A DNA stretch of 63,768 nt, counting the filler, from Collodictyon triciliatum (Eukaryota), in NCBI GenBank assembly GCA_043381765.1. It is 5 parts of 5 records of this genome, joined end to end, with 100 filler letters (N's around TTAATTAATTAA, not from the genome) between each part and the next. Parts side by side here need not be neighbours in the genome. Positions count along the whole stretch, not along the records: positions 26,688 to 39,900 come from JBHJMP010002022.1; 4 more parts are not named here. One strand, written 5' to 3'. The notes beneath the pieces are model-generated. The model was not told the DNA's origin and ran no database searches. It was given only the letters and a program-made list of their open reading frames with translations. Position numbers and translations under genes: made by a program. This document shows positions 3,595 through 55,995 of this stretch, one piece after another; the stretch's first letter is position 1; every line of letters begins with the position of its first letter.

Positions 3595-9711
<6,117 letters not shown>

Positions 9712-13245: not shown

Positions 13246-13345
13246 NNNNNNNNNNNNNNNNNNNNNNNNNNNNNNNNNNNNNNNNNNNNTTAATTAATTA
13301 ANNNNNNNNNNNNNNNNNNNNNNNNNNNNNNNNNNNNNNNNNNNN
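13246..13345. other. Artificial contig spacer (44 N + TTAATTAATTAA + 44 N)
   Basis: Six-frame-stop linker inside an N run; identical structure at three other positions. Confidence 0.97.
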
Positions 13346-20580: not shown

Positions 20581-23531
20581 CAATATCCGCTTCCTTTTTT
20601 TTTTAACCCTTCCCTTTGCCCAGAGCCTACTTTAACTAACGTTTTTTGATTGTAAAAAACAAGGAACTGATCACTGAGAATCCAGAAAGACTTCTCTTCC
20701 AATCAATAACTCCATTATTTGGATTTATTGCTGGCGGATTACGGTTCAAATATGCATTGCCACTTGTTCTTGTCCACCAGATCATCTTCTTTATAGAATC
20801 ATTGTAACAATTCCATATGTTTTGGAGAATTTTTGAAAGCGAGTATATAAATTAGCTTCTCACCTTTCTAAACTTGCTAATATGATTTCACCTGGTGAGT
20901 CCATCATAGCTTCTAAAATTTTATCTTATCTGGGCGTTGCATCAAGATCCTCTGGTGTCAACGTTGTCCTTGTAAATTCCATTTTTATCTTCCTGATTAC
21001 TGGAATATCTGGATATGGAGCCTACTTCAGCGAAGTGTCGATGAGGCGAGATTTCTTATTACAACAGAAACTTCGTAGAGAGAAAAAAGTCACAAGGGTA
21101 TGTGTTCATATTTCTCTGATCTGATGACGTAGACATTATGTCACATACATCCATCGAAAAACTTTATTCGCTTCAAAGCTGAGTTATGTTGATTAATCCT
21201 TCTTTTTTTTTCTTTTTCCTCTAATTTATGTAAAGGATATTCTTGAGAATATGTTACCATCATTCATCGTCAACAAAATGCAGGATGGTGCGCGAGTGAT
21301 TGCAAATAACGAGGTTGTTCTTTCTCTCTTTTTTTTTTTTTTTTAAAAAAAAATAATAATAATTTGTTTGAAGTATTTCTACTTCACTGAACCCAATCAA
21401 ACATGTAACGATCCGCACACCAGCACTCAATATGTCTCCTGGATGTTGTTACTGAAAATTCTTAATCGCCTATATCTAAAATTGCACACCATGTTATTCG
21501 TATCTAAAATAAGTAACTGCTCAAATATTACTCAGAAAAGCGTGTCCGTGCTGTTCTGTGAAATACAGGACTTTGCAGACATCGTGACTGACTCTTCTCC
21601 AAGTGAATTTGTTGCACTACTTGATAAGATTTTTGATCATTTTGACTTTTTGTGTGGAAAGTATGACGTTCAAAAGATCGAAACTGTTGGTCCTATATAT
21701 ATGGTAAGCTCGAAAATTGCTCTTTTGACGAATATGAACTTCTTTTCTATTACCATCCTCTTTTATTTAATTTTTTCAATTTAATTATTGTTCACTAACA
21801 ATGGTGGTTTTGCTAATCTTGGTTCAATAAGGCATGTGCTGGCCTTCAACATTCTGATTCGAACCACGCATTGGCTGTGACCAAACTGGCGGAAAACATG
21901 CTGGAAGATTGTCATAAATTCATTCGGACAAACGGAGAACCAATCAAGTGCATTTTTCACCTTATTTATCTTCTCATTGTATATCGTGTCTTTTTGCATA
22001 AGCTCTTGTCTGTGTATCCTTACGCTATCTTAAGGAACCATAATATGGTAAATTATCAACACAAAGCTACAACCTTAATTACATAATCAGTATTCAATTT
22101 ATCTGCTGTCATAGGGTGCGTATTGGCATAAACACAGGTCCTGTTGTGTCAGGTGTTGTCGGGAAAAAAAAACCACAATATTGCTTATTTGGGGATACGG
22201 TAATCGCACATGCACTATATTTGCTTAAATTGCTCAGGCTTTTTCTTCTCAAGGCGCTTACAGAGTCTCCTACCCAGGTGAACACAGCCTCTCGAATGGA
22301 ATCCACTGCGCCTGTATCATCAATCCAAGTGACTCCGTCGACCTTCAAATTTATCTACACTTCGTATACCGCTATCGAGAGACAAGTGATAAAGAGAATA
22401 AAATTTCTTGGGATTAGTGCCGAACTGACTATATCATTATCTTTATCGTATTTCCTCCTCCAATATCTATCGAATATTTATCCTTAGCCGTAATAGGTGA
22501 CTGTTAAAGGAAAAGGTCTAATGAAAACATACATCATTCGCCCAAAACTAAGAACTCAAGCCTCAGTAGCATCCAAAATGATCCGTTCACGAAAATCAAT
22601 TGTATTGTTTACTAGAATATTGATAATTTGAAGTCATACTAGTCATTTATCATCTTGTTTTGTTTCGTCTTCTTTTTGCCTTTTTTTTTCTTTAAAAAAA
22701 AAAAGAAAGCAAACCTCACCAAAGTCGACATATGTCTTAACGAAAACAAAATAAATGACAATTTTTAGGCGGCAGTCAAACAAAGGAGAAGTTTTATCCC
22801 AAATTTAATTCCTAAACACATATTTGAGGTATGATTGCTTTAAGGAACCTTATTTGATTATATCGGGAATTTATCCCTTCAGTTTTCCTTCATATTCATG
22901 CTAAGTGATTCTCTATAGGAAGAAGACTTGGTCGACGAATCAGAAATATATCCGCTCTCTTTGCTTTTCAAGTCTAGAGACTTAGAACAAGCATACAACA
23001 GCGAAATCAAAGCTACTTTATTCAAGAACTTCCGATATAACCTCGTCCTCTTTATCCTTCTGTATGGCTCTACTCAGATGAACAATGTGATGCAGCACAA
23101 GACTTTCCATATTCTGTTTACTGAAGTCTTTGAGCTATTTATTTCTATGGTTATCTACTTAATAGGATTGCAATTTACATCATGTATGAGCATGCGAATT
23201 CATCTGACATGAACATCTCATTGACAATTATCCGGCTTATTTTTGTTGGTATGCTTTTTTTTTTGGATGATATCTATTTCCTTTGTCTTCTTTTTTTATT
23301 ACATAAAATACAGAAATATAGTAACTATGAATGATGAAGATAGAAACGTATTCTTTGATATTTTTTAAACCGAAAATCATCAACATTTATATTTAAGGAT
23401 TTGGTTTGGTATTTGTGTTTATCAATCGAATGCCAAGATTGGAGGGATACCTATCTGAAATTGCGGCAGTTATGTACCTGTACCTCGGCATCATTCTATC
23501 GATCAACTCATCTGTTAAGGTAGAAATATAA

Positions 23532-26587: not shown

Positions 26588-26687
26588 NNNNNNNNNNNNN
26601 NNNNNNNNNNNNNNNNNNNNNNNNNNNNNNNTTAATTAATTAANNNNNNNNNNNNNNNNNNNNNNNNNNNNNNNNNNNNNNNNNNNN
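26588..26687. other. Artificial contig spacer
   Basis: 44 N + TTAATTAATTAA + 44 N. Confidence 0.97.
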
Positions 26688-26939
26688 CGCTCCAATGATT
26701 CACCCGAACGAGAAATCAATGTATCCAGGCTGGAAAGCCTCGCACAATACAACTTCCTGAACAGCCTGCTGAAACATGCTCGCATTCTTCGCTACTCTGA
26801 CCGCAAGCGAAGAGAGATGTGGGAATGTGTCGTAAGATATCTCCCACAGTATATCCAACCCTGGTGCCCACGCAACCAATCAACCAGTTGGGACGCCCTC
26901 CTGACCAGCTCGCTATCACTGATTTCTTTCCAGTGCTAG
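26688..26939 (+). other. Open 3' end of an unidentified ORF at the contig start (possibly a repeat/retroelement tail)
   Basis: 84 codons open from the first base of the contig to a TAG, followed by A-rich sequence. No recognisable motif. Confidence 0.2.
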
Positions 26940-27544
26940 CCTCTCCACGGTAGTGTCTTCTCCTACTCGCGTTTGCTCTCAACAACACACACCTGTCTCC
27001 CTTGTACAGTTCTGTTTCCTTACAAAGTCAAAAAAAAAAAAAAAGAATCATATAACTTCCGACTCTAACAGAAAAAAAAAAGAGAGAATAATCGATAGAA
27101 ATAGAATGAAAAATGGAAAGAAAAAAGGAAACAGAAATAAGGAAAGGAAGAGGTAAGAAAGAAAAGAAAATGATACAATAAAAAGAAAAAGAAAAAGGTA
27201 AGTCAAAGCCGCTATTATTTTGCACAAACTGAACGGAATAATATAATGGAAATAATGGGAAAAAGGAAGTAAACGAAAAGAGTGGGAGAAGGAAGGGGGA
27301 ATATACCACGATCAACCTGAAAATAAATGGACGAGAATGATAGGTCATGTCGCCATCTTGTAAACTTCCATCCCAATGCTTGAATTGAATTAAAAGAGAA
27401 GAAGCCCCCACCCCCTTAAACCTTTTTTTTTTTTTCATACCAATTACTCAATTCTATATTGATTCTGTCCTATCTCAATTCTCCAAGAAGCCGTCGTTAA
27501 CGTCGGTGCTTGACCCAAAGTGATCGTTTTGCCTCGACAGAAAT

Positions 27545-30258
27545 ATGGTAGCTTGAAGCCTTTTCAGCCTTATATGTGATTCTACTTACTTATGTAACCA
27601 TAGCCGTGCATCTCTTCATTGCCCACTTTTATGGTTTGAACTTATTTTTGTTTGATTTTTGTGCCTTTTAATAGCTACCCGAGCGAACTTAATATTGTTT
27701 TATTTTGGCGCGCCGTTCTCTTCTTTTCCTTCTCACAGGTCAGCCTTGCTGGTGATGAACTACACGGTCTCATGAACCGGAGACACAACATCCGCAATGT
27801 AGCTTTGATAGAGTCTGCAAACAACACAATATCATTATTAATTGAATCACTCGCGATTAACCGTGGAGCTACTCGATTCGAAAAAGCCAAGGATGCCCAA
27901 CTCGTAGATTATCCAGAGGGCAGAGAAAAGCGAATCGTCGTCCCTCAATCCCCAAACAACTTATTATACTTCTTGTTGCCCGAAAATGTGCCACTGCCTG
28001 AAGAAGCTTATGGGCGTGAGTTTTTGATTAATGTCATCGATTCTCCTGAACACATGGGTATTGTATCGAGGGTGGCAGCGAGTCTACGCATTACAGACGG
28101 GCTTCTGGTAGTGGTTGAATGGGATGAAGGACTTACCGTACAAGCCGAGACTATTCTGCGACAGGCTCTGAGTGAGCGTATTGTCCCTACATTAGTTATC
28201 AACAAGTTAGACCGAGCCTTTCTGGACCAGAAGCTGGACCATGAGGACATATACCAAAAAATATGTTGCATCATCGAATCAGTGAACGCAATCATTTCTA
28301 CCTATCGTGATGAGGCAATGGTTGACCTACAAGTCTACGCATAGAAGGGGAACGTTGTCTTCTCATGTATGCAAGACGGCTGGGCATTTACACTTAATCA
28401 TTTTGCACGGACGTATGCGTGCAAGTTTGGCATGGATGAAGGGGTGATGTGCATGCATCTATGGGGTGACTCTTTCTATAATCCAAATGCCAAAAGTTGG
28501 GCAAGAGCTGGAGACAAGATGTTTAAGCGCGCATTCTCTCAATTAGTACTGGACCCTATTCAAAAAATTGTTGATGCCATAATGAACGAGCAATCGGAAA
28601 CTCTGGGAAATATGCTCTCCACTCTTGGCATTAAACTTCTTGCACAAGACCATGACCTACAAGGTAGGCAGTTAATTAGGTGCGTGATGAAAAGGTGGAT
28701 GCCAGCTGCAGACACCTTGCTTGAAATGGTGATTCTAAATCTACCATCGCCCGCCAAGGCACAGCGCTATCGTGTCGATGTTCTATACAGTGGTCCTATG
28801 GACGACCCTGCAGCCACAGCCATCCGCAACTGTGACCCAGATGGCCCTCTTGTCATGTACATCTCTAGAATGGTCCCCCGATTCAATAGCCCCCATTTTT
28901 TGGCGTTCGGTCGTGTATATTCTGGCACAATCCGATCGGGAGCCAGGATTCGTATTTATGGACGAAAGTATCACCCGGGGAAAAAGGAGGATCTATTTAT
29001 CAAGCCCATTCAGGACCCTGTATTATTCATGGGTGATTGTGTTGAAAGTGTCGATTTTGTTTCTTGTGGGAACATCGTTGGTCTGATGGGGATCGACCAG
29101 TATCTTGCAAAGTTCGGTACTTTAACTGACCTTGAATCTGCCCATCCAATCAAGAGTATGAAGTACTCTGCTTCGTCAGTTGTTAACATTCCCATCGACG
29201 TTCAGGACCCTGCTCAGTTGCCCAGACTTGTTGAAGGGCTCAGGCGATTGTGGAAGTCCGATCCTCTTATCCAGTGCGACACCAATGCTGCTGGTCAGTA
29301 TGTCTTGGCTGCTGAGAGCAAGCAGCATCTAGACTTGTGTCTAAAGGACTTTGAGGAAAACATCATGGCTGGTGTGCAGTTAGTTAAGTCTGCCCCTTTT
29401 GTGTCTTTTCGAGAGACGGTTACCTCAAATTCTTCAGTGGACTTGATGAGCAAGTCACCAAACAAGTGTAACCGTATATATTGCAGGGCTGAACCATTAC
29501 CTGATGGCCTCTCCGAAGATATTGAAGCTGGAAAAGTCAATGCCAGTGACAACCCCCAAATTCGTGCAAGGTACCTCGCAGAAAACTTTGGGATGGATAT
29601 CAGCAAAACCCAAAGAATTTGGTGTTTCGGTCCTAGAGGAACAGGCCCCAACATCCTTATTGATGCCACAAAACATGTGCAAAACTTGCTGGAAATTAAC
29701 GAATCAATCATCTCAGGTGTACAATTAGCGACGAAGGAGGGTGTGTTGTGTGAAGAAGAAATGCGTGGAGTCTGCTTCAACGTATTAGATGTTGTCCTTC
29801 ATCAAGATATATATAAGCGTGGAGTTGGCCAGATAATACCAAGCGCTCGTCGTGCATCGCTTGGCGCAGTGCTGATGGCCAACCCTCGTCTGATGGAACC
29901 CATCTACCTCGTCGAAATCCGATGTCTTGTGTCGGTTGTTGATCAAGTCTACTCTGTTCTCAGTCGCAATCGTGGTCAAATCATCGAAAAGAACCAGTGC
30001 GGAAGTGTATCCAAGTGCAATATCAAGGCATACCTCCCTGTGACAGAGTCCTTCGATTTTACCTCCGAACTTCACGACCAGACATCTGGCCAAGCATCTT
30101 CCCAGTTCACATTCGACCACTGGTCTATTATTCACGAATCTCCTCTCGAGCCAGGGAAGGCTGCTGATCTGGTCGCTGCCATTCGCAAAAGCAAAGGTCT
30201 TGAAGAAAGCATCTGTGACATATCTGTTTTCATGGATAGTTTTCACCCGAAAGTTTAG
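27545..30258 (+). CDS. EEF2: Divergent elongation factor 2 (eEF2) paralogue: degenerate GTPase motifs, no diphthamide His, one in-frame TAG at 28342-28344 (possible young pseudogene)
   Basis: ATG at 27545, then a GT-AG intron (27548-27738), then 'VSLAGDELHGLMNRRHNIRN'. Colinear with eEF2 throughout (FLINVIDSP, LRITDG, NKLDR, GWAFTL, SKSPNK, IWCFGP, PRLMEPIYLVEI, KAYLPVTESF, FDHW). The two ORF-track pieces are in the same frame. Confidence 0.9.
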
Positions 30259-30650
30259 GTCATGCAACATAAAAAGCATAACCTAGCTTCTACTATTACA
30301 TCCGTTGTTGTTGTTTTTTCTCCTATGATGACAAAGTACATCATTTCTCTCTTTCCACCTTTGCATGGTTTATTGGGCAATGCCCAGAAGAAAAGCGAAC
30401 AAACCTACTTTAATCTTATGATTGCTCTATTTCCTCACCCACCCTGGACAGCCGTTTACATGCCCGGATTCGGAAATCTCCTCGCGCGCTTTGTACCCTT
30501 TTTCCACAAATAGATCAACTAACCCGAGCCTACACGTTTTTTTTTTTCTTACGGTTTCGCCCTTTGTCCCTGTGGAGCCGATTTCTCTCCATGAAAGTTG
30601 AGAAAGGATAAGGAAATCCGGGGCACAAAGAAGGCCGAGCGAATCAAAGC

Positions 30651-30954
30651 ATGAAGACGCAACGAAGAGTGTATACTTTGCTTTGGACCATACGACTGAA
30701 GAAATCAACAGGTGGGAAAGATCGGGGCAAAAAGAGAACTGAAAGACAATGAAAAGACATGTTCGCATACTCGCACACAAACGCACATGATCTTTGCTTC
30801 GTCATTGTCTGTACAGAATAACAAATACTAGTGGGGAGATGGTGATGTGCTCGTAACATCGGGTTGGTCGGTGCCTAAATGGTTTGGAGTTGTCTGTGGT
30901 TTTTGTGACGAGTGCCGTTGTTGTTGCTGCTTTTTGCTTAGTTTTTTTTTTGTT

Positions 30955-31009
<55 letters not shown>

Positions 31010-31443
31010 TTTTTTTTTTTTTTTTTTGTTTTTTTTTGTTTTNNNNNNNNNNGTTTTGTTTTTTGTTTTGTTTTTTTGTTTTTGTTTTTTTGTTTTTGTT
31101 TTTTTGTTTTTGTTTTGTTTTGTTTTACTTTGTTTTCTTGACCTTTACCTGTGCTTGCTCTGTTTTTTTATATATTCTTTAGCACAACATAGACACACTC
31201 CAGTTTATATTAAATTGGAATGACCCACCTCCTCACTAAGTTTACTGTTTCTGTATGCAAACAAAATGGTGTGCAGGCAAGCGAGGAAATTAATTAAAGG
31301 TCGCATGCTCTATTGGAGTGACACTTCTTATCCTTTTCCTTTTCCTTTTTCTGGGAGAAAATATGCAGTTACTTCATTATAATATTCTCATTTATGCATG
31401 TTCGAATGGAATGATGAAAATGGTTCTGCAATATCCGCTCCAA

Positions 31444-31476
<33 letters not shown>

Positions 31477-31581
31477 TTGTGCTATGAACGATTATTTTAC
31501 AATTAGAACGCAAATATTCGATGCCATTTATTTAAAGGAATGGTGGTTTTTTTATTTTGCAGTAACGTATAACATACTAAA

Positions 31582-31640
<59 letters not shown>

Positions 31641-34600
31641 CACAAGGTTCTCTCAGGGGCGAAGTAAAGGATATATTTATCCCTATAATCTCAAAGATAA
31701 ACATATGGGTAACAAGGGATCAAAGAGTCCCACGCTTGGAAAGGAAGATCTTGGCGTTGGTAAGAAATAATCCCAACCTAGATACCTATTATTATCACGT
31801 ATTCAATGCTGGCTTGCAACATTCATCGTATAAAAAACATCACTTGATTGATATTCGCCACTTTCCCCCCGCCAACCCTGTGGTCAGATGTGGCTCAGAC
31901 GATCGTGACAATTACTCCCATAACGCACGAAGTAAAGAAAGTCACATATGAGAACTTTCTGCAAGAGTTTGCCAATTATATCGCTCAGGTTGAGTTCTAA
32001 TCCAAAATTCTGAGGTTGTGGGCCTTATCCTAACACCTTTTCTGGCTTAATCTATGCAGAATAAAGTCCAAGATGAACGTGGTGTATCATATGACGATGT
32101 CATTCCTTTTCTATCAGGAGGGCTTCAAAAGGTAGGAAAATCAAGATATTTTAGGCCTGATTGCTTTAGCCTTACACCTACGATCTAATAGAATAGTACT
32201 TGATTCATTTTAAGCCTTCATTCTATGCTTCATTCAATTTACCCGTAAATTATGTACAACTCCCTCAACAAAGGACGTGTATACCTCTCCTCTATTTAAA
32301 TTACTATACTATAGTCTCGTTCTGATGATAACAAGTATGAGCTGTATCTTGCAAATAAAAAAATTGGAGACTTGTCATGTAAGAATAATTTGATGGGTGT
32401 GTGAAAGGATGATGTCAAAGCTGAAGTTGTTGTATATATAATTTACCCTTTAATCGTCTTAAAAAATATCTCATTTACCTGCTATTTTTTTTCAAATGTA
32501 AAAAACAATTAAAGTTTACTCAAATTTTCAATTCTATTATATAATTAATGCATTTAGCCTGATTAAGTGCAAATTACAGTTTCCAGGGTAACCGATTGCT
32601 TTACTCTGGTCTTGAAATCGATGGGCCATATTCGGGCGAGTCAAGATTTCTTTCACCGAACTGTGGTTTCATATCCCATACACACAATTGTATTGAAGGA
32701 TTGCAAGCTTACGACAAAATCAGTCTCGTATGGTCACTTGAAAACGATTTAAAGCTATTTGGACTTATACTTATGAAATTACGTAGCATACCCCTATTCA
32801 TACCAAGCTTTTATTTCAATTCCTCTAATTACCCTCCACTTTTCAGCAAGATTTTCTACCTCCTTTACAACGAGGATATCATGCCACTCTCTGATCTAGA
32901 TCTATCCTCCAATTTGTTTGATGACGAAGTAAATATATTATTTTCAAAATTATTGTTTTATGCATTAATTTTTTTTAAAAAAAAAACGATAATTCCCTCA
33001 ATATATGAATATAATAATTTCAGGTATTTTTTGGAATTAATTTTATAAATTATCTATTTATTTTCTCTTCTCCCTTTCTGTCTGCGTAATAATATGTTTT
33101 ATCTTCAAATACAGGCAGGACCTCCATTACTGGAAGCCCTTAAGACAAACAAAACTCTAAAGTTTTTAGATTTGAGCAGCAACAGATTTGCAGCCCTCAC
33201 TCATGCGTCATTGGCAAAAATTCTTATTGTAAACCAAACGTTACGAAAGTATTAGATTATTAGACTCATCTTTTAACGATGTAATTCAGATAGTTTATAG
33301 TGTATCTCGAGACAAAATGCTTGAATCATGAATCATTTTATTTTTGTTAAAAAAAAGAAGGATGTGTAGTTTTTCTTAAATTTTGAATTTTTTTTCTACC
33401 AGTATCAACCTTTCAAGTAACCTAGGAAATGAGAAAAATATGGATTTGGTTGTTGACGGCTTAAAATATAATACGTCTATGCGCATGCTCAAGCTCGATT
33501 TTCATATATGTTCAACCCCGGTATTATTGAACAAAATGAAGCATTACACCCAAAGAAACGAGGTTGGTGTATATGTTTTGTTGGAATATGATTATATGTT
33601 CCAATTATGACATCTGAAATTTCATTTGTTGATAAACTAAGATGATGTATTGTATACCATATCTTAACCACCATTATATTTAGACAATATCGGATATTGT
33701 CGCTAAATTGGTAGAATATTCGATCCATAGAGCATTTGCTTCAAAAATAAGGCCTACAAACCAGAGCGGACCCGATCATAATCATCATTTTTCTTGTATG
33801 AACTACCTGTGTGCTGTAAAATTTTAAAAGAATGAGGGAAAATAGATGTCCTTATTAGGAATACCTTTCTTCGATGTGTGACATAAATCCTTCTTAATTC
33901 TGCTTCACAATCCACGAAACGTCGTAGCCAAACTAGCGAGAGATCACCGCAACCATATTCCAAGGTATCCCACTGCAACAACAAGCGCTCATCCAGCCTC
34001 TGGCAGTAGCAATAGCCCTGATTATAGTAAGACCATTTACAAGCCACTCAGTCCAAGCACTGAATCGCATTCACTACCATCATATTTTCATACATGTGTT
34101 ATGCAAGAATATCTATTATGGCCTTTCATACGGATAAGCGCGCCTTTATCTAGGCGCATCATTGAGCGATACTGTCTCAGTCTACTCGTCGGCTTACAGT
34201 CCAAGGTCAACGAAAGGGGACCCATCTAGCCAGCAATCTGTGCTGTCTCGAAGGACGAAACAATACGGCCCATCAAATTCTACATCAACCCCATCCCATT
34301 CAGAAGTCTCTGCATCACACACCATACAAACAGCACCATACCAAGACACCAGTCATAATATACAAACCACTCGTTCATCCCAACCAAAAGAACAAGATGA
34401 TCAAAGTATTCAATCCCCGGTGACTCCAAAGAAGCTATATTCTACTGCAAAACCAAAGAAAGATGGAGAATCGGTATATACTCGGGAAGGGGTGAACCAT
34501 ACTCCATCGCAACTTCCTGCACCGAAGAAGACTCCATCCCCATCTGCCTCCCCAGCAACACCAGCACTTCCATCGCTACCTTCTGGAAGACCGAATTCCC

Positions 34601-36774
34601 AAGTCTCCCCATCAAACAGCAATACAAAGGTATGGGATGCCTAATTCTCATAGGATAGTACTTTTTTTTTTCATATGTTCTTCCTTTCGATTTGCACAAG
34701 ATAGTGGAGGTTTTGGCTTGGGTTGAATTGGAAACCGACACATCTTTATGCCTTTTTATGCTTAGTTTTGATACTGGTTTTTATTGCTCTTATGCGATTA
34801 CTAATATGATTGAGCGTTGGTTATTTTTTATATTCCATCAATAGACTCTTCTTTTTAATGCATACACCTGTAAAAGTCCTTTTAATCCTGTAATAATAAT
34901 CTTAGATTGCACATCCTCGTTCTCATATTGTGAAGACAAGTAAGTGTTTATAATTCCTCTTTTTTTAAAAAAAAAATACATAAATATTTACAAGAAAAAT
35001 TAAAGGCTCCAAGCTTTACCATTTTTAAGAGATTTTTTTTGTTCCAACGATTTGATCGGCTGATTAATGAATGTAATGCTTTTCCACATGCTTTGAACGT
35101 GTGGCACTAAAAGAAAAAATTCGCTCTTTGTTTGGTTCTTTTGTTATTGTAATAATAATGAATATAATAAATATACATACAAGAACTAACTCGATAAATC
35201 ATCACTAGCTCTCTCCGAAGGCGATAACAGCGTACATGCCTCTTCAAGGTTCAACGTAGGTCTGGTTGAACTGCAGGGACGCCGTTCAGCTATGGAAGAC
35301 TGTAGTGTAATATTTTCATACTTATATTCACAACCCTTAGGCCATTTCTCTCCATGCACCAACATTTTGTACCCTTTTTTTTTTCCGTATTCATTTATAT
35401 ATCTTGTGATTATAAGGAAAAAAAAATATATCTTGTGATTACATAGTCAGAAACTTAATTCAACCAGGTTGTGTTTGGCAACTTCCGAGGTCGAGCCGAC
35501 GAAGATTACTTTGCCATTTTTGATGGACATGGAGGAAAGGAGGTGTCCACATATCTTTCTCAGAATCTACATGATTTTCTTACAAAATCCATGGCCGCAG
35601 CGAGCGATATTTCTTCGTGCTTAACTACGGTAATCTTTTCAATTAGACATATATGTAAATGTGGAAATTGCATATCAACAACATAATATGGAATTATTCT
35701 GCAAGGATATCGCCTTCTTGCCCAGCTAACAAATACTAAATTCTTGCCTGGACCTAGGCATTCGAAACACTAAACCAGTCGCTTCCAAAGAGAAATTCTC
35801 ACTGTGGGAGCACTGCTGGTGTTGTTCTTGTCAAAAGAGAGACTATTTACGCAGGTGAGTAAAACTATACTCCTAGCTCAACCATGTCACATGTTGTAAT
35901 AAAACACCCATCCGTCTAGTAATGTATCATTTTGAAAAAAAAACTGCCTCAGATATTGCGATATTCGACTTAATTTTCTATTTAAATACTACGAATGAAT
36001 GATCATCCACATAGCAAATGCTGGCGATACTCGCATAATCTATTGCAGAGAAGGTAACTGCAGCGTCGTTTAATCATAAATCTTCGATGCGACTGAAGGA
36101 ATACCTACAAATGTCTGACTGACAAATCGCAATCGTCATTATCCCTTTCCAGGTGTACCCAAGAGGCTAAGTGTGGACCACCGGCCAACTTTACAGCAAG
36201 AATTCCAGAGAATACATGATTTGGGAGGCCAAATAATTAATAATCGTGTCAGTGGTACTCTTGCTGGTTTGTTTATTATCTTAAACTGATATATTTGCTT
36301 GCTAAACTTACACTTTTACTTGAGGGCTCGCAAGCTCTATAGTCAGTTTAGTCTAATTCACACATACTTTACAGTCACCCGAGCTTTTGGAGACTTCTAT
36401 CTCAGACCTTATGTTATCTCGAAACCGCACATCAGCATGCAAACCCTCGACTTTTCGGACCGCAGTTCCGAGGTAGAATATAATCCATTTGACTTCTATA
36501 TAACATCATCATCATCTCGATTGTATCTATTAAGTACTTTTCGGCTAAAATATATATATATATAGTTAAAATAATAATTTATCTGCAGGTCATAATCATC
36601 GCATGCGACGGCGTTTGGGATGTGATGTCTGATCAAGAAGTGGCGTCAATTGCCCATAAGTTTCTCAAATCAGGAAATCCAAATATCGCTGCAAAAGCCG
36701 TTGCCGAAGCCGCTTACCAACGAGGAAGCCCTGATAACATTTCAGTAATGGTGATAGAGGCATTGAAATCATAG
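30651..36774 (+). CDS. Multi-exon LRR (RNI-like) + Ser/Pro/Thr-rich linker + PP2C (PPM) phosphatase; 5' end uncertain
   Basis: LRR exons 'LSDLDLSSNLFDDE' and 'LKTNKTLKFLDLSSNRF'; linker exon ~34154-34629. PP2C motifs: GRRSAMED, YFAIFDGHGG, GSTA, ANAGDTR, DHRP, VTRAFGD, IIACDGVWD, GSPDNISV. TAG at 36772-36774. An in-frame splice path from LRR to PP2C can be drawn. Confidence 0.8.
35397..35441 (+). mobile_element. Ultra-short poly(A) retro-insertion with 16-bp TSD (intron of the PP2C gene)
   Basis: ATATATCTTGTGATTA (35397-35412) + TAAGG(A)n + ATATATCTTGTGATTA (35426-35441). Confidence 0.55.
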
Positions 36775-37165
36775 TCCTTGGCATAATACAGCAGTTTTCT
36801 GAATGTGGGCTTGTTTTTCTTTTCTTTTCTTTTCCACATCTAGTTTTCTTAAGAAAAGAAAGAATAATAATCGTCATTTGTTGAGGCGTGAGTGTTGTAT
36901 GATGAATCCATCATGGGAATGCAAAGATGTAAACTTTGTCATCTTTATGCAGCTAGCTCCTGTTGTTTAGAATAAGAATAAAGAGACGAAATATGTCGAC
37001 ATTCCCCTCTGCTTTATCGCACGCTTGATTATGATTATTATCTCGCGTGTGCTTATCCTTTTCTTTGGTGTTGGTTTTATCACGGAAGAAAGAAGATGTG
37101 TGGACAAAGCCTCCTGGGACTCTGATTCGGCCGAACGGCTCCTGGGGAGCGACGAGGCGCAAGGG

Positions 37166-39701
37166 CTACTCCATGTCCACAGCTTTCTTGCCCACACTTG
37201 CAGCGCCGCGCGTGCCGGACTTGCCTTCTTTCTCGCGAGGAAGGTCCTTCTCCAGGCTGGACGTGGACGAGGACGCGCGCATCTTGCCCTTCTTCTTGCC
37301 TTTCGTCTTTTTGTTCATCCGCTCCAGGATGTTGGATGCCTCCTGCTTGATCTGCCGGCGGTCGAGAACCTCTTCTTCGTCGTCCTCCTCGTCGCTGTCA
37401 TCTTGGGGCACTGGGCAGTAAGTGCGGAGAGCAAAGCCAAGAGCAGTTATTAGAAGAAAGAAACAAAAGCATGTGTATCTTTTAAATAATAATAATAATG
37501 AAAATAAAAATAAAGGAGTGGAGGGCGCTCCATTTTGCATTACGAATTACGCATTTATTTGCCACAGGTAAGGACAGGACGGGGAAATGAGAAAAGAACA
37601 TGGAAAAGGAAATATATAGGTGCTACTGGATTTGAAGGATGGGACGGATAGAAACATACGTTCTTCCACATCGTCCACTGTGGGGACCTTGACACGGACG
37701 TTGAAGTGGGGGATGTCTTCCGTTCCAACATGTTTCTAGGGGAAAAGGGGATGCAGGACGCGGATATTGGCTGTTAGGATGAGTGAGGAACCGAAGGGGT
37801 CTGCGTGTGTGTGTGTAAATCGTCAATAAACTCACTGCGCCCGGCTTGTCCGCAGCAGATGATGCAGGCTCCCCGGCAACTGCGATGGGCTCTTCAGACA
37901 CGATGGTCTCCATAACCTTGGCAAGCTTCAACTCACACAAGGTCAGCACATCGACCACAGTCTCATCAGACATGGGGACAGGTGGCTGCTCCACTCGGAT
38001 AGAATCCAAACGGTCTGCGAGGTGTTCGATACCGGCCTGATTGAATGACTAGGGTGAGTCTCTGAGTCATATTTTTTTTCCTTTATTCGATGAGTCTCTG
38101 AGTCATATATTAGTTACTGTCAGTGTATAAGGTGTGCAATTATTATATCACTCTACCAGTGCCTAGGCTTTGACTCATTCTTTTTCGGCTAATTATTTTG
38201 GTAAAGTCTTGCTTCATTATTTATGTATATATGTATTTGTTTTACCTTCACGTTGACTAAAATCTTTGCGATCCTCTCATACTTTTGGCGATTACGCTCA
38301 CACTTGGAATTTGCTTCTGAAAGGTGGGTTTCGAATTCATCCACAATCCGACGGCTACCGAGTGAACCAGAAGCAGAGTACTTGATTTCTTCTAATTTTG
38401 CCTTCATTTGCGACTATCACACAAAGAGGATAATTACAAACTGGCCTTTAGAAACAGGCTGCATCGCCTGCTTTCGACAATTATTTGCATATATACATTA
38501 ATATATGATCAAATATACTTTCTCTTCGTTCAATGTTTCAATTCTTGTTTGAGCTTCTTGTTTCAAGGCTTGTAAGTTATTGTGCGTTTCCTCCTATGAA
38601 CGCGTAATGTTTCTCTCTTGAGTAATAATATTAAGAATAAATTGCGTGTCATAACCTTGCTGCACTTTGAATCGAATAAAGGAAGAAAAAAAAAAAAGAA
38701 GTTGAGTGTCACAAGTTATTTAAGATGGTTACAAGATCAATCTAAATATGATAAACGGGACTATGTATATTACCTGAGTGAGGAATTTTTGAATGACTTC
38801 ATTAACATCAGAGACGCCTGTCGCCTCCTTGATTTTTCGGAAGGCATCTTCATAACTTGTGATCTTCTTGGACTGTTCTTCTTCTCGTCTGGTCTCTTCG
38901 GTCACTGTGGATATATTGGTTTCATATAAGTATGCGATGGCTCCAATACCAGGTTTGTTTACTTTTGTGTGCGCCAATGATATTGTGCTGTGTCTAATTT
39001 CCCGTATTATGTTCGTTTTTACTTTGTTCTTTGCGAAGTTGTCTTTCCCGTTCCTCTTCTTTCTGTCGCTGCTCGTTCTGCTCAGCTCTCTATGAATCAT
39101 TAGGATTTGTTACGATATATTGCCGAATTCTATTAAATGCTTAGGTTGGAAACAAGACCCAGTGATAGTGTAATGACTATGAATTATTTAGTTTCTCAGT
39201 AGAATTCTAATTTTACTCTTTTCTCCATTCGATCATTCATTTCCTTCTTCGCTTTAACCATCTGTCTCTTTTCTGATAGCTCAGCCTCTCGAGTTTTTCT
39301 CTCTTCCTCCATGGTTTGTTCAAATCTGGCCAGCTCAGCCTGGATGAGTTACAGCGAACAAAACATCAATAGACCACTCATGTGTGTGTGTTTGTTTTTG
39401 TTGGTGTTAACCTTGGACGCTAGTTGCTCGCTAGAGCAGGACACTGAAAAAAGAAAGAAAAAGAATGACAAACCAGTGCAACGTCTCGAGCGTGGTTGGC
39501 GTCTCGGCACATGACCAATAACTCTTCATAGTCGTGCTCTTTAGCCTTTGTGGCCCGCTCGATTGCTTGGAGCTGGTTATCAAAAGTCAACCGCTCTTCT
39601 TGAAGGCGCTTCACGATTTGCTGGTACGTCTTTTTTATGCTGATGGCTTCGTTATACTTGATCATCGCCTTGTCCAATCTGTTTTCTAGGGCGCGGATTT
39701 G
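37166..39701 (-). CDS. CCDC151: Outer dynein arm docking/assembly coiled-coil protein, CCDC151/ODAD3-like; 5'-truncated at the contig end
   Basis: Exons 'IRALENRLDKAMIKYNEAISIKKTYQQIVKRLQEERLTFDNQL', 'ITSYEDAFRKIKEATGVSDVNEVIQKFLTQ', 'KYERIAKILVNVK|AGIEHL' and an acidic 'DDSDEEDDEEEVLDRRQIK' tail. Confidence 0.8.
38055..38108 (-). mobile_element. Ultra-short poly(A) retro-insertion with perfect 18-bp TSD (CCDC151 intron)
   Basis: TGAGTCTCTGAGTCATAT at 38055-38072 and 38091-38108 flanks the reverse complement of TCGAATAAAGG(A)7. Confidence 0.75.
38639..38714 (+). mobile_element. Short poly(A) retro-insertion with decayed 16-bp TSD (CCDC151 intron)
   Basis: CCTTGCTGCACTTTGAATCGAATAAAGG plus an A-rich tail, between AAATTGCGTGTCATAA and AAGTTGAGTGTCACAA (13/16 identical). 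Confidence 0.65.
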
Positions 39702-39786
39702 CTATGGTAGGATTCATATAGATAGCTTGAATTGAGAGGTACGAATCCCAGGGTAACTCTGATACAGAGAAAATACTTGATATGGC

Positions 39787-39900
39787 TTCTTTCATTCTTT
39801 CTTTCATTCTTTCTTTCATTCTTTCTTTCATTCTTTCTTTCATTCTTTCTTTCATTCTTTCTTTCATTCTTTCTTTCATTCTTTCTTTCATTCTTTCTTT
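39787..39900. repeat. (TTCTTTCTTTCA)n 12-mer tandem repeat at the contig end
   Basis: Direct reading. Confidence 0.95.
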
Positions 39901-40000
39901 NNNNNNNNNNNNNNNNNNNNNNNNNNNNNNNNNNNNNNNNNNNNTTAATTAATTAANNNNNNNNNNNNNNNNNNNNNNNNNNNNNNNNNNNNNNNNNNNN
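39901..40000. other. Artificial contig spacer
   Basis: 44 N + TTAATTAATTAA + 44 N. Confidence 0.97.
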
Positions 40001-48340: not shown

Positions 48341-51300
48341 TCACCATTTGATGGAGAGCGGGTTCGAGATCTTTTCCCTTGCATGGTATTGGGTATGAAG
48401 CAGATGCCTACGGCGGGCATTAGTGTGGGGTGGAAAAAAGTGAGTCTCGTTGCCCCTAGCATTTATATGTATGAATATGTATATATGCGCCAGACAAAAG
48501 CACAAGGACGATAAGAATAGAACACAAGAGCAGAGAAAACAACGACGCACCGAACGGGCTCCGACCCAGGTAATCCGCCCAGCCACCGGTAAATCGGCTC
48601 AAGAAGCGGGTTCTGCTCCGGATGCTGCAGTGCTCGTTCATGGTATATGCCTTCCAGTCGTGTGATAAGCTCCTTGTTGGTCTCCGGCGCAGTGGCGCTG
48701 ATTTGCCCGCCTCCGTTCAGACACCCTTGGGAGTTTGATGTTATGTTGAATGTCTTGTTTTCTTATGTTGGACTCTTTCTTGCTATTATTATTTTTGATG
48801 TTTATTTGCCCGGTGCAGCCGCTGGAATTCATATGCTTACCTGAAGGACAGGCCATAACCTGATGCATAAAAGCTGCATTAGAATTTGAGCAAAGCTCCG
48901 TGTGACCAGAATTACTGGGGAGATGGAGCCCAGTGGCGATAATTATGGGGATATGCAAGATGCGTGCACACGGAAGTGAAAATACACTCGTCGTTTTCAT
49001 TCTCGTTCATATCTGCCAAATTCAGTCACCTCGACAAAGTCGTAGTCAGACTTCCCCATCTTTAATTTGCGTATGATGGTCTGGATGTTGCGGAATCCAT
49101 AAGCAATGGCGAAACGCAGCTTGACCTCTCCATTCACCTACGCAGCATGACGAAAGTAAGCCCCAAGAAGAAAAGAAACGACAGAAGGTGTATCGCCCTT
49201 GGCATTTTCTTTTATGGTTAACAAACATTAGACTGGAAGAAAAAAAAAAACATCGACGCATTGGGATATAAAAATATGCATTCTTATACGGCGATGTCTT
49301 TGAATGGAGATGGTGTTCTGAGAGCGACCTACTTCGATATTTGCGGTCTTCACATCCGAGTTTCTTCCTTGTTTGAATTCGACGGTATCGATGTCTATTC
49401 CGTAAAGCTGCTTTGCGGTGGCTCGAAGGACATACTCCAAATACCCACCCGAACTCCCTTTCCATCCATACAAAACTTGGGAATTTACAGGGATGCCCTG
49501 GACACTGGTGAGCATGGTCGAAGAAGGATTGATTTTAATTACAGAAGTACAAATCGCTTGGGTATTATCAATTCCCTCCATGACTTGTGTATGCTTTTAC
49601 GCTTCTTTCAATCTTATTTGTTTGCTATTTTTCGGGTTTGAAAAGAGGTTTGGTTCTTGTGTGGAGCATTATGTGTGACCACAACGAAAATAATTACAGC
49701 GAGTCGTCAGGTGATTCTTCTATATCTTGGAAATTCTCTTCAGATTCTTGTACAAACTGAAGGAATTCTCCAGTGGTTAGTACGCAATCAATATCCCGTG
49801 TTTGAAGGAGGTCGTCATAAAAGTCGTCCCTGGAAGCCTCCAGTTTTTTATCATAGCATGGCATTACAGCTATGTGATAAATCAAACCAGCACTAAGAGC
49901 GAAGGGAGCCAAATCAGTCAAATGGGTCAGATGTATATGAATCCAGTTGTATAAAAAAAGGAGATATTTTCTAAAATTTTTCAGTAGAAATCCTCTTGAC
50001 CATTTAACAAAGGGAACTAAGAGGAGTGCGGAAATGAGCAATATATTTTGAATCATCCATTAAATAATGAAACTGAAGTTAATCATTACTTCACCTGAAA
50101 GAGCTATTTTCGATTACAAAGCGTTTCACCAAGGAACCTATTATTTGCATGGGCGATTTGACTGTCGTGATGTAAGGAAGAACGTCCATTCCATGTGTCT
50201 TTTCGGCGTAACAAATCCATCCTATATCGAAGGATATTGTGTCCTCTTGGTTTTTTTCTCTAGTTGTTTCGTTTTTCATTTTTTTTTCCTTTTAATTTTT
50301 TCCTTTTTCATTTTTTTTCGTTTTTCATTTTTTTTTTCGTTTTTCATTTTTTTTCGTTTTTCATTTTTTTTCGTTTTTCATTTTTTCGTTTTTCGTTTTT
50401 CGTTTTTCGTTTTTCGTTTTTCGTTTTTCGTTTTTCGTTTTTCGTTTTTCGTTTTTCGTTTTTCGTTTTTCGTTTTTCGTTAAAGAGCCTAAATGCACCA
50501 GCAGATATTTAAATTTCAAGTATTGAACCCTTTTAAACCCAGACCCGCCAATGACTTCGTATTCTACAGAAAATTGCAACTACCTGGGCACTCTGAGGTC
50601 AAAAGTGGGAGCGATCCTTTTGTTTCCTTCTCTGATATTCTCTTAACAAAATCTTTCTGAACCTGTGGAAGATTTGAATAATTTTTTTGCAATAGTGTCA
50701 CGTTCTTAATAAATAAAAAAATAACATGGCATAGTAGTGAATTAGAAAAATGGGTTAAGATAATTTGGTAGATGATTGTTGATTAGATGTGCACTTCGAT
50801 TAGCGAAAACGCATAAGCAGATGACGCATCAAAAATATGAGACACCCCTTTTTTCCTCAAAAATCCAACCATCTTTCGAAAGGTCTAAATCGGTCAGTAA
50901 AATGCTCTAAGTTGAATGTCATTTATATATACCGAAATTATGGGATGCAGTTACTTTTGAAATGAAAAGAATTTAACAAAATAAAATACGGCACGTGCTT
51001 TAAAATGGAACATGTATAGCTATTATAGAGACGATAAAGTAAAAAAATTTAATAAAACCAGAGCTAATGGCATGTGGTAGTGTGCTGCAACAGCGGCAAT
51101 TGATTGCGGAGATATAGTGGCAACGATTTTCTTTTCCTTCGCATTTAAAACATTTACAAATTCATCCAAACTTTGCTGAGATATTAATACTGTCTCCGCA
51201 GAAGTGACGCATCCGCTGGTTCATACATAGAGAAAGGATAACGGATAAAGGATACGATTGTATACATTTGATGGGTGAGAATAACGAATCAGGATACTCC

Positions 51301-53206: not shown

Positions 53207-53306
53207 NNNNNNNNNNNNNNNNNNNNNNNNNNNNNNNNNNNNNNNNNNNNTTAATTAATTAANNNNNNNNNNNNNNNNNNNNNNNNNNNNNNNNNNNNNN
53301 NNNNNN
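53207..53306. other. Artificial contig spacer
   Basis: 44 N + TTAATTAATTAA + 44 N. Confidence 0.97.
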
Positions 53307-53529
53307 TTTCCTTTTCCTTTTCCTTATTCCTTATTCCTTATTCCTTTTTCCTTTTTCCTTTTTCCTTTTTCCTTTTTCCTTTTTCCTTTTTCCTTTTTCC
53401 TTTTTCCTTTTTCCTTTTTCCTTTTTCCTTTTTCCTTTTCTTTTCCTTTTAGCACCCTCAAATTTTGAAAGGTCTGATACGAGCCATCAAGATTATACAG
53501 TACTTTGAACAGCACCTTCTTGAAAACGA

Positions 53530-55995
53530 ATGAACTGGCGGGGAAAAAATGGCATTAGTCAACAAATATCCAATTTCGAAGGTGAAGTGATTGACGGCGA
53601 TGCCGAGCTGGGGACAAACGCAAACGCAAACGCAAACGCAAACGCAAACGCAAACGCAAACGCAAACGCAAACGCAAACGCAAACGCAAACGCAAACGCA
53701 AACGCAAACGCAAAGTATAAATCACTAATGTTTGACCTTAATTTCTTTGCCTACGTAAATCCAAGTGATTGTATCGGGGCATATCTTTTTGGGAAGCAGG
53801 CAAATATGTTTTTAACCAAATATTACTATCGAAACAGAATTTTATCGCACGGCCTGTTTGTCATATGGGCTTTTTCATCTTTAATAACTGTCCTTTTCTT
53901 CAGTTATCGAAGCTCTATATTCGCTCTCAGTGGAGACATAGCTTGCCCATTCGGAATAGCTTTTCAAATACTTACAATTTTGAAACTTAATGTGAAAGTC
54001 GTGCGAGAGGTTCTTAATTCGTTCGAAACAATATTTCTGATTCTTGTTGCCGCTATTCAATTATACACCTGCTTCGACATGATTGGTTGGTCATCTTCAT
54101 CCATGATAAGATATGCGTTTTTGATGGTCACATTTTTTTCTGCTATTTTGGGTGAAGCATTTCCAATATCGAGTCGTTCGTTCGAAAGAAAGTGGAAAAA
54201 ATTAATGACAATCAGACAAAAACTAAATGTTGCTGCGACCATAAATGAAGATTCAATCGAGGCAGATGAATTACTCGTAGATTCAGAATTAATCGAAAAA
54301 CTTCGGCAAACGATCGACGTAACGAACTGTCATATTCTTGCTCAAATAGTCTCAAAGAAAATAGAACAGAGTGACAAATGGTCATTCAAACAGAAATTTT
54401 ATTGGATGTTAAATAGAAGCCTTCTTTTTACAGACCTGCTTTATTTGCTTGCATATACAATAGCACTGTTTATGACAATTTATTCATATATGGTATTCAC
54501 TACCGGATCGGCATCGATCGAAAGTGATGGATTGATAAATATTTTTTGGCTTCGATTCAAAATGACTGATTTATTTCGGGCCACATGCATGACAACTACC
54601 AGCTACTTTTTGAAAAAGATTTTCACTATAATCATTAACCCGTTTCACCTCACCAGCGTGCAGAAATCCCAGGTGATAATTCCAGTAATACAGGACTGGG
54701 TCGTGCTTCTGGATGAAGATTGTAACGAAAATTATCAGAATTTTTTGGAGAACTACCAGGAAAGGTCTGATTTAGTGATGCCAGTCACCTTCAATCAAGG
54801 AGACAGTTCACCACCTCTCTATCCAAGGGTCATAGAAAGTGGCTCTCCCTCTGCTTCAAGAAAAAGGGAATGGTATCCCACGGTCATAATGTCAGCTAGT
54901 GGTAAAGGGGACTTATTAGATACAAAGCTCAGCCTGGCTGACAATATTTCCCCAAGATTGAACGTGAAAACAAAGAAATTGAGAACACATTTGAGAAGGC
55001 ATTTCATAAAGTACATTTTGATTTGGGCCACTGGTATTACACTACTTTATATTTTCTTTATTACAGGACTTGCTGATGTTCATTTGGCTAGTGTCCCGTT
55101 CATCATTATCACGTTTCTGATGATCTTATTGCAATTACTGGATCTAATTAGCTCCATAATTTATTGCATTTTTACAAGTTTTGAGTCACTTTACCTTCTT
55201 GCAAATCTCATTACATTTACGTGGTGCTCTTCATGGTATTTTCCAAAAAGCAATGGCCCCTGGATATTCGTCTTCATGACATTGACACTCCTTGTTGTTG
55301 GAAACTTTTCGTTGGATGCAAGACCCACATCTATAAGGAATACAAAAGACATAATCGATAAAATTAGAAAGCTGCGGTACTCGAATAATTTCTCTCAAAA
55401 AGACAAAAAGCTACAGATGATTTTGAGTCAGTTTGTCGGTCGCTTGCAATTGCATAATAATTCAACAGTAACCATATCACCAAATGTACCACAAAAAGGA
55501 AAACGCAGTTTAGCATGGATTGTTGAAGATGTAGATGGGATTTCCCCACAAAAGCAGCAGACCCAAAATATTCGGAAAGAAAAAGTTTGTCACAATCCAC
55601 ATGATTTGGAGCCCTTCCACCAAGATGAAGCCAAATCGAATCGTAACATGCATGCTTTTAAAGATTGGTTTGCCGAGGCCAAAATATTGCACATGCTGAT
55701 GGGAAATGGAAAATCGCTTTTAGCCTTTTTTGCTTTATTACCAATACTAAGCCTATACTCAATGGTTGACTCTGAAATCATACATAACCCTAATCCTGGG
55801 CAAGTCTATATCGGAGGCGCAACTTGGGAAAATATTTCCATAGTGAAGGCTACGCTGGGTAATATGATAATTTTTTTGACAAAGAGACTCGTAATCAGCC
55901 TATTTTTTCCAGAGAGGTGCATATCGATTCAAAGGCCTGTGCTGAGGATACCGTTAACCAACCAAATAATTTCTCTGCTTCACTCCCAACCATGA
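53530..55995 (+). CDS. Intronless 821-aa multi-pass membrane protein of unknown function, two homologous halves
   Basis: Single long ORF with two hydrophobic clusters. Paired motifs: SFETIFL/SFESLYL, EAFPISSR/DARPTSIR, PFHLTSVQKSQVIIP/PERCISIQRPVLRIP. Conserved with the adjacent paralogue. Confidence 0.85.
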   Translation: MNWRGKNGISQQISNFEGEVIDGDAELGTNANANANANANANANANANANANANANANANAKYKSLMFDLNFFAYVNPSDCIGAYLFGKQANMFLTKYYYRNRILSHGLFVIWAFSSLITVLFFSYRSSIFALSGDIACPFGIAFQILTILKLNVKVVREVLNSFETIFLILVAAIQLYTCFDMIGWSSSSMIRYAFLMVTFFSAILGEAFPISSRSFERKWKKLMTIRQKLNVAATINEDSIEADELLVDSELIEKLRQTIDVTNCHILAQIVSKKIEQSDKWSFKQKFYWMLNRSLLFTDLLYLLAYTIALFMTIYSYMVFTTGSASIESDGLINIFWLRFKMTDLFRATCMTTTSYFLKKIFTIIINPFHLTSVQKSQVIIPVIQDWVVLLDEDCNENYQNFLENYQERSDLVMPVTFNQGDSSPPLYPRVIESGSPSASRKREWYPTVIMSASGKGDLLDTKLSLADNISPRLNVKTKKLRTHLRRHFIKYILIWATGITLLYIFFITGLADVHLASVPFIIITFLMILLQLLDLISSIIYCIFTSFESLYLLANLITFTWCSSWYFPKSNGPWIFVFMTLTLLVVGNFSLDARPTSIRNTKDIIDKIRKLRYSNNFSQKDKKLQMILSQFVGRLQLHNNSTVTISPNVPQKGKRSLAWIVEDVDGISPQKQQTQNIRKEKVCHNPHDLEPFHQDEAKSNRNMHAFKDWFAEAKILHMLMGNGKSLLAFFALLPILSLYSMVDSEIIHNPNPGQVYIGGATWENISIVKATLGNMIIFLTKRLVISLFFPERCISIQRPVLRIPLTNQIISLLHSQP
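53617..53712 (+). repeat. (AACGCA)16 coding hexamer repeat encoding poly-(Asn-Ala)
   Basis: Perfect 96-bp tandem repeat in frame within the 821-aa ORF. Confidence 0.95.

Follow-up and report, generated by a model that had tools for sequence, protein, structure and literature searches.

An eEF2-like gene copy in Collodictyon triciliatum with replaced GTP-binding motifs, a largely conserved reading frame and a single premature stop codon

Here we describe an eEF2-like gene copy in the CRuMs protist Collodictyon triciliatum (assembly GCA_043381765.1), which lies on the plus strand at positions 27545–30258 of the 63,768-nucleotide (nt) stretch of DNA analysed (the window). We lean towards reading it as a formerly selected, non-GTPase derivative of canonical eEF2 that is now probably freshly broken. 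The copy has replaced its P-loop, switch I, G3 glycine, G5 motif and diphthamide histidine, and its frame carries far fewer stops and indels than unconstrained evolution to the same divergence would be expected to leave.

Results

The GTP-binding motifs and the diphthamide histidine are replaced

The long second exon of the gene aligns colinearly with eEF2 from residue 2 through to the C-terminus and preserves the domain order G, G', II, III, IV and V. The Pfam models GTP_EFTU, D2, EFG_IV and EFG_C all match above their cutoffs, and EFG_III falls below its own (18.6 bits for a cutoff of 27, versus 53.1 bits in P0002, the closest canonical eEF2 among the matches listed). An initial annotation, made from the sequence alone, had reported that the G1 motif of the P-loop reads ESANNTIS, and alignment placed this replacement exactly at 27811–27834; its readings of KRIVV in switch I, DSPEH at G3, SCMQ at G5 and a surviving NKLD likewise proved to be present where it had put them (Table 1). 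All seven aligned relatives carry AHVDHGKS, ERGITIKST or ERCITIKST, DSPGH, NK[LM]D, and S[AG]GL or GSGL. The span of 27545–28400 given in that annotation covers only the first third of the gene, which ends at 30258.

The changes extend beyond the nucleotide pocket. The diphthamide histidine, at a site invariant in 124 canonical eEF2s, has become a lysine (H693K, 29815–29817; HQDIYKRG versus HxDxxHRG), while most of the invariant residues of domains II and IV are retained. With both the nucleotide pocket and the diphthamide histidine lost, the encoded protein is predicted to have no GTP-driven translocase activity.

The copy appears to be a young duplicate of canonical eEF2

A near-length search of a collection of 5.8 billion proteins, which included a Diphylleia transcriptome set, gave 3741 significant matches among 8000 scored candidates, the best 120 of which are listed. 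Closest among the matches listed were P0002 (62% identity), P0003 (59%) and P0004 (53%), with the rest of the best 120 at 47–51%; at the 90%-identity level, P0002 clusters with a Diphylleia rotans protein and P0004 with one from Rigifila ramosa. In line with the proposal in the initial annotation, the copy is nearer to eEF2 than to EFL1 or Snu114 (G domain against PDB entries, E = 1.2e-42 versus 3.1e-19 and 1.6e-20, respectively). Maximum-likelihood (ML) analysis of 27 sequences and 836 columns (LG+G4+F, 1000 ultrafast bootstraps) placed it inside the eEF2 clade as sister to P0002, with an ultrafast bootstrap support (UFBoot) of 100 and a branch of 0.80 substitutions per site, versus 0.0000026 for P0002. 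By this estimate practically all post-duplication change has fallen on the eEF2-like copy.

Among the diphyllatean sequences, 23 sites are derived in P0002 alone; the copy shares the derived residue at 11 of these, has the ancestral one at 4 and another residue at 8, and the four ancestral states are no more than chance would give, judging from the agreement at P0003-derived sites (10/53). Because of the sister position and the shared P0002-derived states, the duplication would postdate the divergence of the P0002 lineage from D. rotans, the eEF2s of the two being 92.6% identical. Judged by these comparisons, the copy is a young, lineage-specific duplicate of canonical eEF2. Among 80 fetched loci, the best candidate for the DNA of P0002 is only 72% identical to it. 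P0133, which has the string ESVNA, was considered as a relative and rejected, being nearer to P0002 (70%) than to the eEF2-like copy (55%).

The reading frame carries far fewer lesions than neutral decay predicts

Of 834 aligned codons, 317 differ from P0002 (38% amino-acid divergence), 237 of them by one step and 80 by two under parsimony. There is no internal gap along this alignment, which bears out the earlier description of some 800 further codons as colinear. Unconstrained substitution was simulated, starting from a parent sequence reconstructed by parsimony and stopping at the amino-acid divergence observed, with 300 runs under a Jukes–Cantor spectrum and 300 under a strand-symmetrised spectrum inferred from the gene itself. 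The mean number of stops expected was 15.4 under the former (minimum 6) and 17.3 under the latter (minimum 8), against a single one observed, and none of the 300 runs under either spectrum finished with one stop or fewer. The shortfall is seen on both sides of that stop: codons 1–201 contain none for 4.9 expected (2/500 runs) and codons 203–839 none for 11.5 expected (0/500 runs). The most altered block of the protein, residues 20–79, is also free of stops, with 2.9 expected (18/500 runs).

The mutations themselves look unremarkable. The 202 unambiguous one-step changes comprise 129 transitions and 73 transversions, with 102 GC>AT and 59 AT>GC changes, and because this spectrum is ordinary, a stop-avoiding mutational process is not indicated; hypermutation of a single type, or resembling repeat-induced point mutation (RIP), was rejected on account of the mixed spectrum. 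Since both stops and indels are far below the neutral expectation, we infer that selection kept the frame open through most of the divergence. Given an expectation of about 16 stops, an unconstrained phase would likely have occupied less than ~1/5 of it, and by our own estimate the frame stayed open for more than ~4/5.

These results bear directly on the possibility that the locus is an ordinary, neutrally decaying pseudogene. Such a history would accommodate the in-frame TAG, the loss of the catalytic hallmarks, the change at 32% of universally invariant sites, the lack of orthologues in our searches and an AT-biased, transition-rich spectrum typical of mutation pressure. It would also predict 15–17 stops, a load that no simulation approached from below (none of the 600 had fewer than six), and it is at odds with the absence of indels from the aligned codons, with replacements that are conservative overall and with the strong heterogeneity among domains and blocks described below. 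We regard this reading, already disfavoured, as very unlikely indeed. The initial annotation had argued for past selection as a non-hydrolysing eEF2-shaped protein and against uniform decay, and the count of stops and indels speaks on its side.

Residual constraint differs among domains

The earlier impression that most replacements are conservative holds up quantitatively: their mean BLOSUM62 score is 0.00 versus -0.52 under neutrality (z = 6.1; 0/200 simulations). When the domains are taken separately, the observed value was reached in 0–1 of 200 simulations for each of G', II, III and IV (Table 2). Replacements affect 89 of the 279 sites that are invariant in the 124 canonical eEF2s and touch every domain, with a marked imbalance: G, III and V together have changed at 69 of 161 such sites, versus 18 of 113 in G', II and IV (Fisher p = 1.8e-6). 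The latter three spare their invariant positions (18/113 changed versus 110/290 non-invariant ones, p = 1.5e-5), whereas G, III and V show no such sparing (69/161 versus 83/193, p = 1.0). The only robust statements at the level of domains are that G has been released and that G', II and IV are still constrained.

Table 2. Conservativeness of replacements, loss of invariant sites and Pfam scores by domain (bits, P0002 to eEF2-like copy)
Domain	BLOSUM z	Invariant sites changed	Pfam model	P0002 to copy (bits)
G	0.7	44/95	GTP_EFTU	164 to 53
G'	3.5	4/23		
II	3.6	9/46	D2	47 to 38
III	3.3	16/38	EFG_III	53 to 19 (below cutoff 27)
IV	3.6	5/44	EFG_IV	109 to 67
V	0.7	9/28	EFG_C	82 to 67
C-terminus	0.7	2/5		

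Change is also clustered along the chain. The most altered 60-residue segment, 20–79, runs from the P-loop to switch I and differs at 45 of its 60 positions, a value reached in none of 5000 permutations; a second hot block lies in domain III (512–541, 18/30 changed). A compensated frameshift behind the 20–79 block was considered and rejected, as tblastn returns a single in-frame segment and the differences are mostly point replacements. The claim that damage concentrates on the catalytic motifs is thus right about the hottest block and too narrow for the gene as a whole, the loss extending to the diphthamide loop and to domains III and V.

The same pattern is what separates the reading we lean towards from that of an expressed but useless duplicate, in which the copy of a very strongly expressed gene went on being transcribed and selection acted only against truncated, misfolding or ribosome-jamming products, preserving the frame and the conservative character of the replacements with no new function, until the stop arose. 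Several features suit this account: the near-neutral missense rate (a branch of 0.80 versus ~0), the overall change of invariant sites almost as often as of others, the lack of orthologues found, the joint loss of the G motifs, the diphthamide histidine and the domain IV loop tips, and a constraint that shows as conservative changes and not as retained functional residues. It leaves unexplained why invariant sites were spared in G', II and IV and not in G, III and V, and why the block from P-loop to switch I changed at twice the rate of the rest. From the sequence, this domain-specific sparing and the fast block look like a shift of function and unlike general fold maintenance. We consider the useless-duplicate model unlikely; it is an equally sober alternative, hard to tell apart by sequence alone.

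A single in-frame TAG interrupts the frame

The initial annotation took the frame to be intact. It is in fact interrupted by a TAG (28342–28344) where the core G domain ends. Reading TAG as a sense codon was rejected: TAG also terminates the gene, just where a stop is expected, and neither TAA nor TAG occurs in an 823-codon frame located elsewhere in the window. Because the terminator of the gene is itself TAG, reassignment is unlikely. A 12-nt intron around the codon (GTCTACGCATAG) was likewise rejected, being too short and removing aligned conserved residues. We take the single TAG to have arisen late, or else to be an allele or an error, and most likely the copy, or the allele present in the assembly, has been freshly inactivated.

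Closely matching sequences occur in environmental data. Two freshwater DNA runs from different studies contain 151-nt contigs with 0–3 differences from the copy; a metatranscriptome run contains a 220-nt contig identical over 27888–28107 (depth 5.6), and a second metatranscriptome run, from another study, a 252-nt contig with two differences over 28587–28838. These near-identical contigs show that the eEF2-like sequence exists in nature, and their occurrence in freshwater fits a diphyllatean-like (CRuMs) flagellate as the host, to which the clusters of P0002 and P0004 also point. Four differences are listed, of which M450K and R579H are nonsynonymous and Q454Q and T665T synonymous, a number too small to interpret. 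The TAG, the putative intron and the flanks are left uncovered by all matching contigs.

The stop need not be a true lesion if the copy is a currently functional pseudo-GTPase paralogue: it would then stem from an assembly error, represent a strain or heterozygous allele or be read through, or the product would be a 629-codon protein that begins at the ATG at 28369 and lacks most of the G domain. The retention of the open frame and the constraint results fit this picture, as do the presence of just one lesion in 839 codons and the RNA-library contigs, found in two libraries with one on each side of the TAG. Against it stand the TAG in the assembly as given, which no matching contig spans, the improbability of TAG reassignment, and the failure to find such a protein in the 5.8-billion-protein collection by near-length and shorter-protein searches (best 120 listed). 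The G-less variant gains something from the fact that the only domains in which BLOSUM scores reveal constraint (G', II, III and IV) all lie downstream of the TAG, and it has no need of the upstream codons 1–201, which nevertheless stayed open. Taken together, a paralogue that functions today seems to us rather improbable.

Gene model and surrounding features

The eEF2-like locus occupies the third of the five parts joined in the window (26688–39900, JBHJMP010002022.1) and is read in frame 1. A tblastn search with P0002 recovers one in-frame segment, 27739–30243, at 62% identity and no other copy in the window, and the gene measures 840 codons versus 836–842 in canonical eEF2s. Its homology to eEF2 starts exactly at V2. 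Because the open stretch 27640–27738 upstream contains no in-frame ATG, we model the gene as a one-codon exon 1 followed by a phase-0 intron. A similar arrangement can be recognised elsewhere: of 13 genomic eEF2 loci recovered from metagenomes, 10 (L007, L031, L036, L040, L042, L046, L058, L060, L061 and L065) have an AG directly before codon 2. Since the match of these loci begins at residue 2 after that AG, it would be common among eEF2 genes for a phase-0 intron to separate the ATG from codon 2. The apparent retention of this predicted intron argues for a DNA-level copy and against a retrocopy. As to the marks of retroposition, the acceptor context before codon 2 is present, and the flanking repeats are only homopolymer tracts.

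Table 1. Features of the eEF2-like gene (positions along the window)
Feature	Position	Strand	Sequence or remark	Basis
Candidate start, one-codon exon 1 (putative)	27545..27547	+	ATG followed by GTAGCT	sequence only
Alternative start codon	27631-27633	+	ATG followed by GTTTGA	sequence only
Putative phase-0 intron after ATG	27548..27738	+	ends in polypyrimidine tract and CAG, ...ttctcttcttttccttctcacag followed by GTC	sequence
Exon 2	27739..30258	+	839 codons and terminal TAG; one internal TAG	homology to eEF2, tblastn
G1/P-loop	27811..27834	+	ESANNTIS for AHVDHGKS; exon-2 residues 25-32	alignment
Switch I/G2	27925..27951	+	EKRIVVPQS for ERGITIKST	alignment
G3/switch II	28039..28053	+	DSPEH for DSPGH; Gly lost, His kept	alignment
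G4	28201..28212	+	NKLD, kept	alignment
Internal in-frame TAG	28342..28344	+	codon 202 of exon 2, 203 of protein; aligns with E or D of QVYP[ED]KG	
G5 region	28360..28383	+	FSCMQDGW for FSAGLHGW	alignment
First ATG downstream of internal TAG	28369-28371	+	within G5 region; opens 629-codon frame	
Core of domain III hot block	29308..29340	+	AAESKQHLDLC for AGAGELHLEIC	alignment
Domain IV loop	29455..29472	+	SPNKCN for SPNKHN	alignment
Diphthamide loop	29797..29832	+	LHQDIYKRGVGQ for LHADAIHRGGGQ	alignment
Terminal stop	30256..30258	+	TAG, 4 codons past canonical end (DSFHPKV* versus DKL*)	

A search of the flanks for transposon or repeat structure found only homopolymer and microsatellite tracts, and an Rfam scan gave no match. 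Just downstream of the gene, a poly(T)-rich tract (30942–31040) and a poly(A) tract (31571–31646) form an inverted pair of 60–76 nt about 540 nt apart, and a gap of 10 Ns lies at 31043–31052.

The five parts of the window measure 13245, 13242, 13213, 13206 and at least 10462 nt and are separated by spacers of the form N44-TTAATTAATTAA-N44 at 13246–13345, 26588–26687, 39901–40000 and 53207–53306. Their ends fall in microsatellites or homopolymers, and features on different parts are not neighbours. On the plus strand, 21347–21781 and 22044–22484 give consecutive matches to the adenylate/guanylate cyclase catalytic domain (profile positions 6–68 and 101–130); these are probably exons of one intron-rich gene, in contrast to the uninterrupted 2.5-kb exon of the eEF2-like copy. 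The 823-codon frame mentioned above (53524–55992, plus strand) carries an (Asn-Ala)n repeat close to its beginning and is rich in hydrophobic stretches, and neither a Pfam match nor an in-frame TAA or TAG was found in it. Exon-sized stretches on the minus strand match leucine-rich repeats (6290–6775), the C-terminal domain of the iron-only hydrogenase large subunit (Nar1/hydrogenase-like; 49697–50059) and the coiled coil of ODAD1 (38732–39109), a component of outer dynein arm docking; the ODAD1 match would indicate a flagellated organism.

Discussion

The history we lean towards can be outlined as follows. A canonical eEF2 gene would have been duplicated at the DNA level in a lineage-specific event, after which the copy would have lost G1, switch I, the G3 glycine, G5, the diphthamide histidine and much of the sequence of domains III and V. 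Divergence would have been very fast, with the frame kept open and translated for most of its course, missense change in the G domain running close to the neutral rate and residual purifying selection on G', II, III and IV; finally, one premature TAG would have arisen. Of the properties by which a pseudo-GTPase might be recognised, the loss of motifs and past selection for an open frame are thus apparent in the sequence, and present integrity, given the TAG, is not.

What the selected product did is a more tentative matter. It is possible that it was a nucleotide-independent, eEF2-shaped protein that used the scaffold of domains II and IV, for instance in the ribosomal factor site, and the sparing of these two domains would suit an eEF2-shaped body docking on the ribosome without GTP. 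A bolder version, which we find doubtful, is a dedicated nucleotide-independent eEF2 mimic in this CRuMs protist, a young paralogue devoid of P-loop, switch I and diphthamide. It would be selected to remain full length and to hold on to the domain II/IV scaffold, and would serve in ribosome parking or as a decoy, close to the storage or decoy role suggested in the initial annotation; the TAG would then be an error, a site of read-through or an allele of one strain.

Several observations weigh against the reading of a formerly selected derivative. Because of the in-frame TAG, a full-length protein is not encoded in the assembly under the standard code. Orthologues with the same G1 loss, which the initial annotation had proposed to look for, were found in none of the searches. 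The near-length search returned no protein with the same losses (best 62%, among the best 120 of 3741). Shorter proteins covering residues 1–240 gave 20 matches, none exceeding 66% identity, and of these 8 were aligned, none of the 8 having degenerate motifs; for residues 241–839 the best 120 by score were all at or below 54%, in a ranking in which fragments could stand lower. Six peptides specific to the protein gave 78 pattern matches in JGI metagenome contigs, 0 of which were confirmed. As to expression, also proposed as a check, the two metatranscriptome contigs are a weak hint of transcription and no proof of it, as RNA libraries can contain DNA.

Over the whole protein, invariant sites have changed nearly as often as variable ones (89/279, 32%, versus 203/512, 40%; p = 0.03), a loss that comes close to what complete loss of function would be predicted to produce. 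Domain V appears unconstrained by both BLOSUM and invariant sites, yet keeps 82% of its Pfam score, and domain III is conservative by BLOSUM, yet loses invariant sites and drops in Pfam score, so that the domain picture is not fully coherent. The unequal rates of the copy and P0002 are consistent with missense changes having accumulated almost neutrally, and the ancestral codons used in the simulations are parsimony guesses.

Comparison with known systems places the copy close to eEF2 in form and apart from it in chemistry. It resembles canonical eEF2 (e.g., PDB 1n0u and 7old) in domain order, length, identity to its nearest relative (62%), the NKLD motif and the switch II histidine; it differs in the replaced P-loop, switch I, G3 glycine, G5 and diphthamide histidine, in the in-frame TAG, in an EFG_III match below cutoff and in a branch more than 100 times as long as that of its sister. 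Snu114/EFTUD2 and EFL1/Ria1 offer a precedent in that they, too, arose by duplication of eEF2 and took on tasks other than translocation as eEF2-shaped proteins. The two are ancient, occur throughout eukaryotes and retain a nucleotide-binding G domain, and Snu114/EFTUD2 bears an N-terminal acidic extension. The copy, in contrast, branches inside eEF2 next to the sequence of one species. It is separated from Snu114 by the PDB comparison (E = 1.6e-20 to 1e-19 versus 1.2e-42 for eEF2) and by having no such extension, its homology starting at eEF2 residue 2, and from EFL1 by a PF25118 score of 26.9 bits (cutoff 30.9) and a length of 840 codons without the large insertion of EFL1.

Loss of GTP hydrolysis has occurred elsewhere among the relatives of translational GTPases. 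Ski7 is one such relative without hydrolysis. Another member of the superfamily that lost it, aSelBL, is cited in the available text of PMC6143161. Both resemble the eEF2-like copy in having been kept without GTPase chemistry; they differ in belonging to the SelB or eRF3/Hbs1 branches and in being conserved families not derived from EF-2.

By analogy, the nearest published counterpart would be the archaeal aEF-2p, described by Narrowe et al. 2018 (PMC6143161) as a second EF-2 beside the bona fide one, which lacks the diphthamide histidine and conserved domain IV loop residues and was judged unable to translocate; G1–G5 are kept there, and GTP hydrolysis is expected. According to the same text, aEF-2p is old and conserved across several archaeal lineages, whereas the copy is young, single so far, interrupted and without G1, G2, G3 and G5. 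Canonical eEF2 has also been reported on idle ribosomes (PMC13541302, PMC11063288). That situation is similar in that an eEF2-shaped protein is parked in the factor site, a state of the kind that the storage role suggested in the initial annotation would require, and different in that the protein is GTPase-competent eEF2, no dead paralogue being described in the available text of these reports. A search of openly accessible literature, without supplements, found no eEF2-derived pseudo-GTPase in eukaryotes; as far as it showed, Snu114, EFL1 and aEF-2p all keep the nucleotide pocket.

The weight that the locus can bear is limited by its being a single one in a fragmented assembly, with a premature stop and no orthologues found. 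If true, a dedicated mimic would mark the first case of a pseudo-GTPase derived from eEF2 and would serve as a natural experiment to tell which parts of the factor matter when GTP plays no role. A copy devoid of both pocket and diphthamide site whose frame selection nevertheless kept open would capture an early stage that is otherwise not seen; this stage may lead to a new eEF2-shaped factor or, slowed by selection, to the death of a gene copied from a highly expressed one. Such a copy would be a concrete, testable case for whether the body of eEF2 can occupy ribosomes without GTP.

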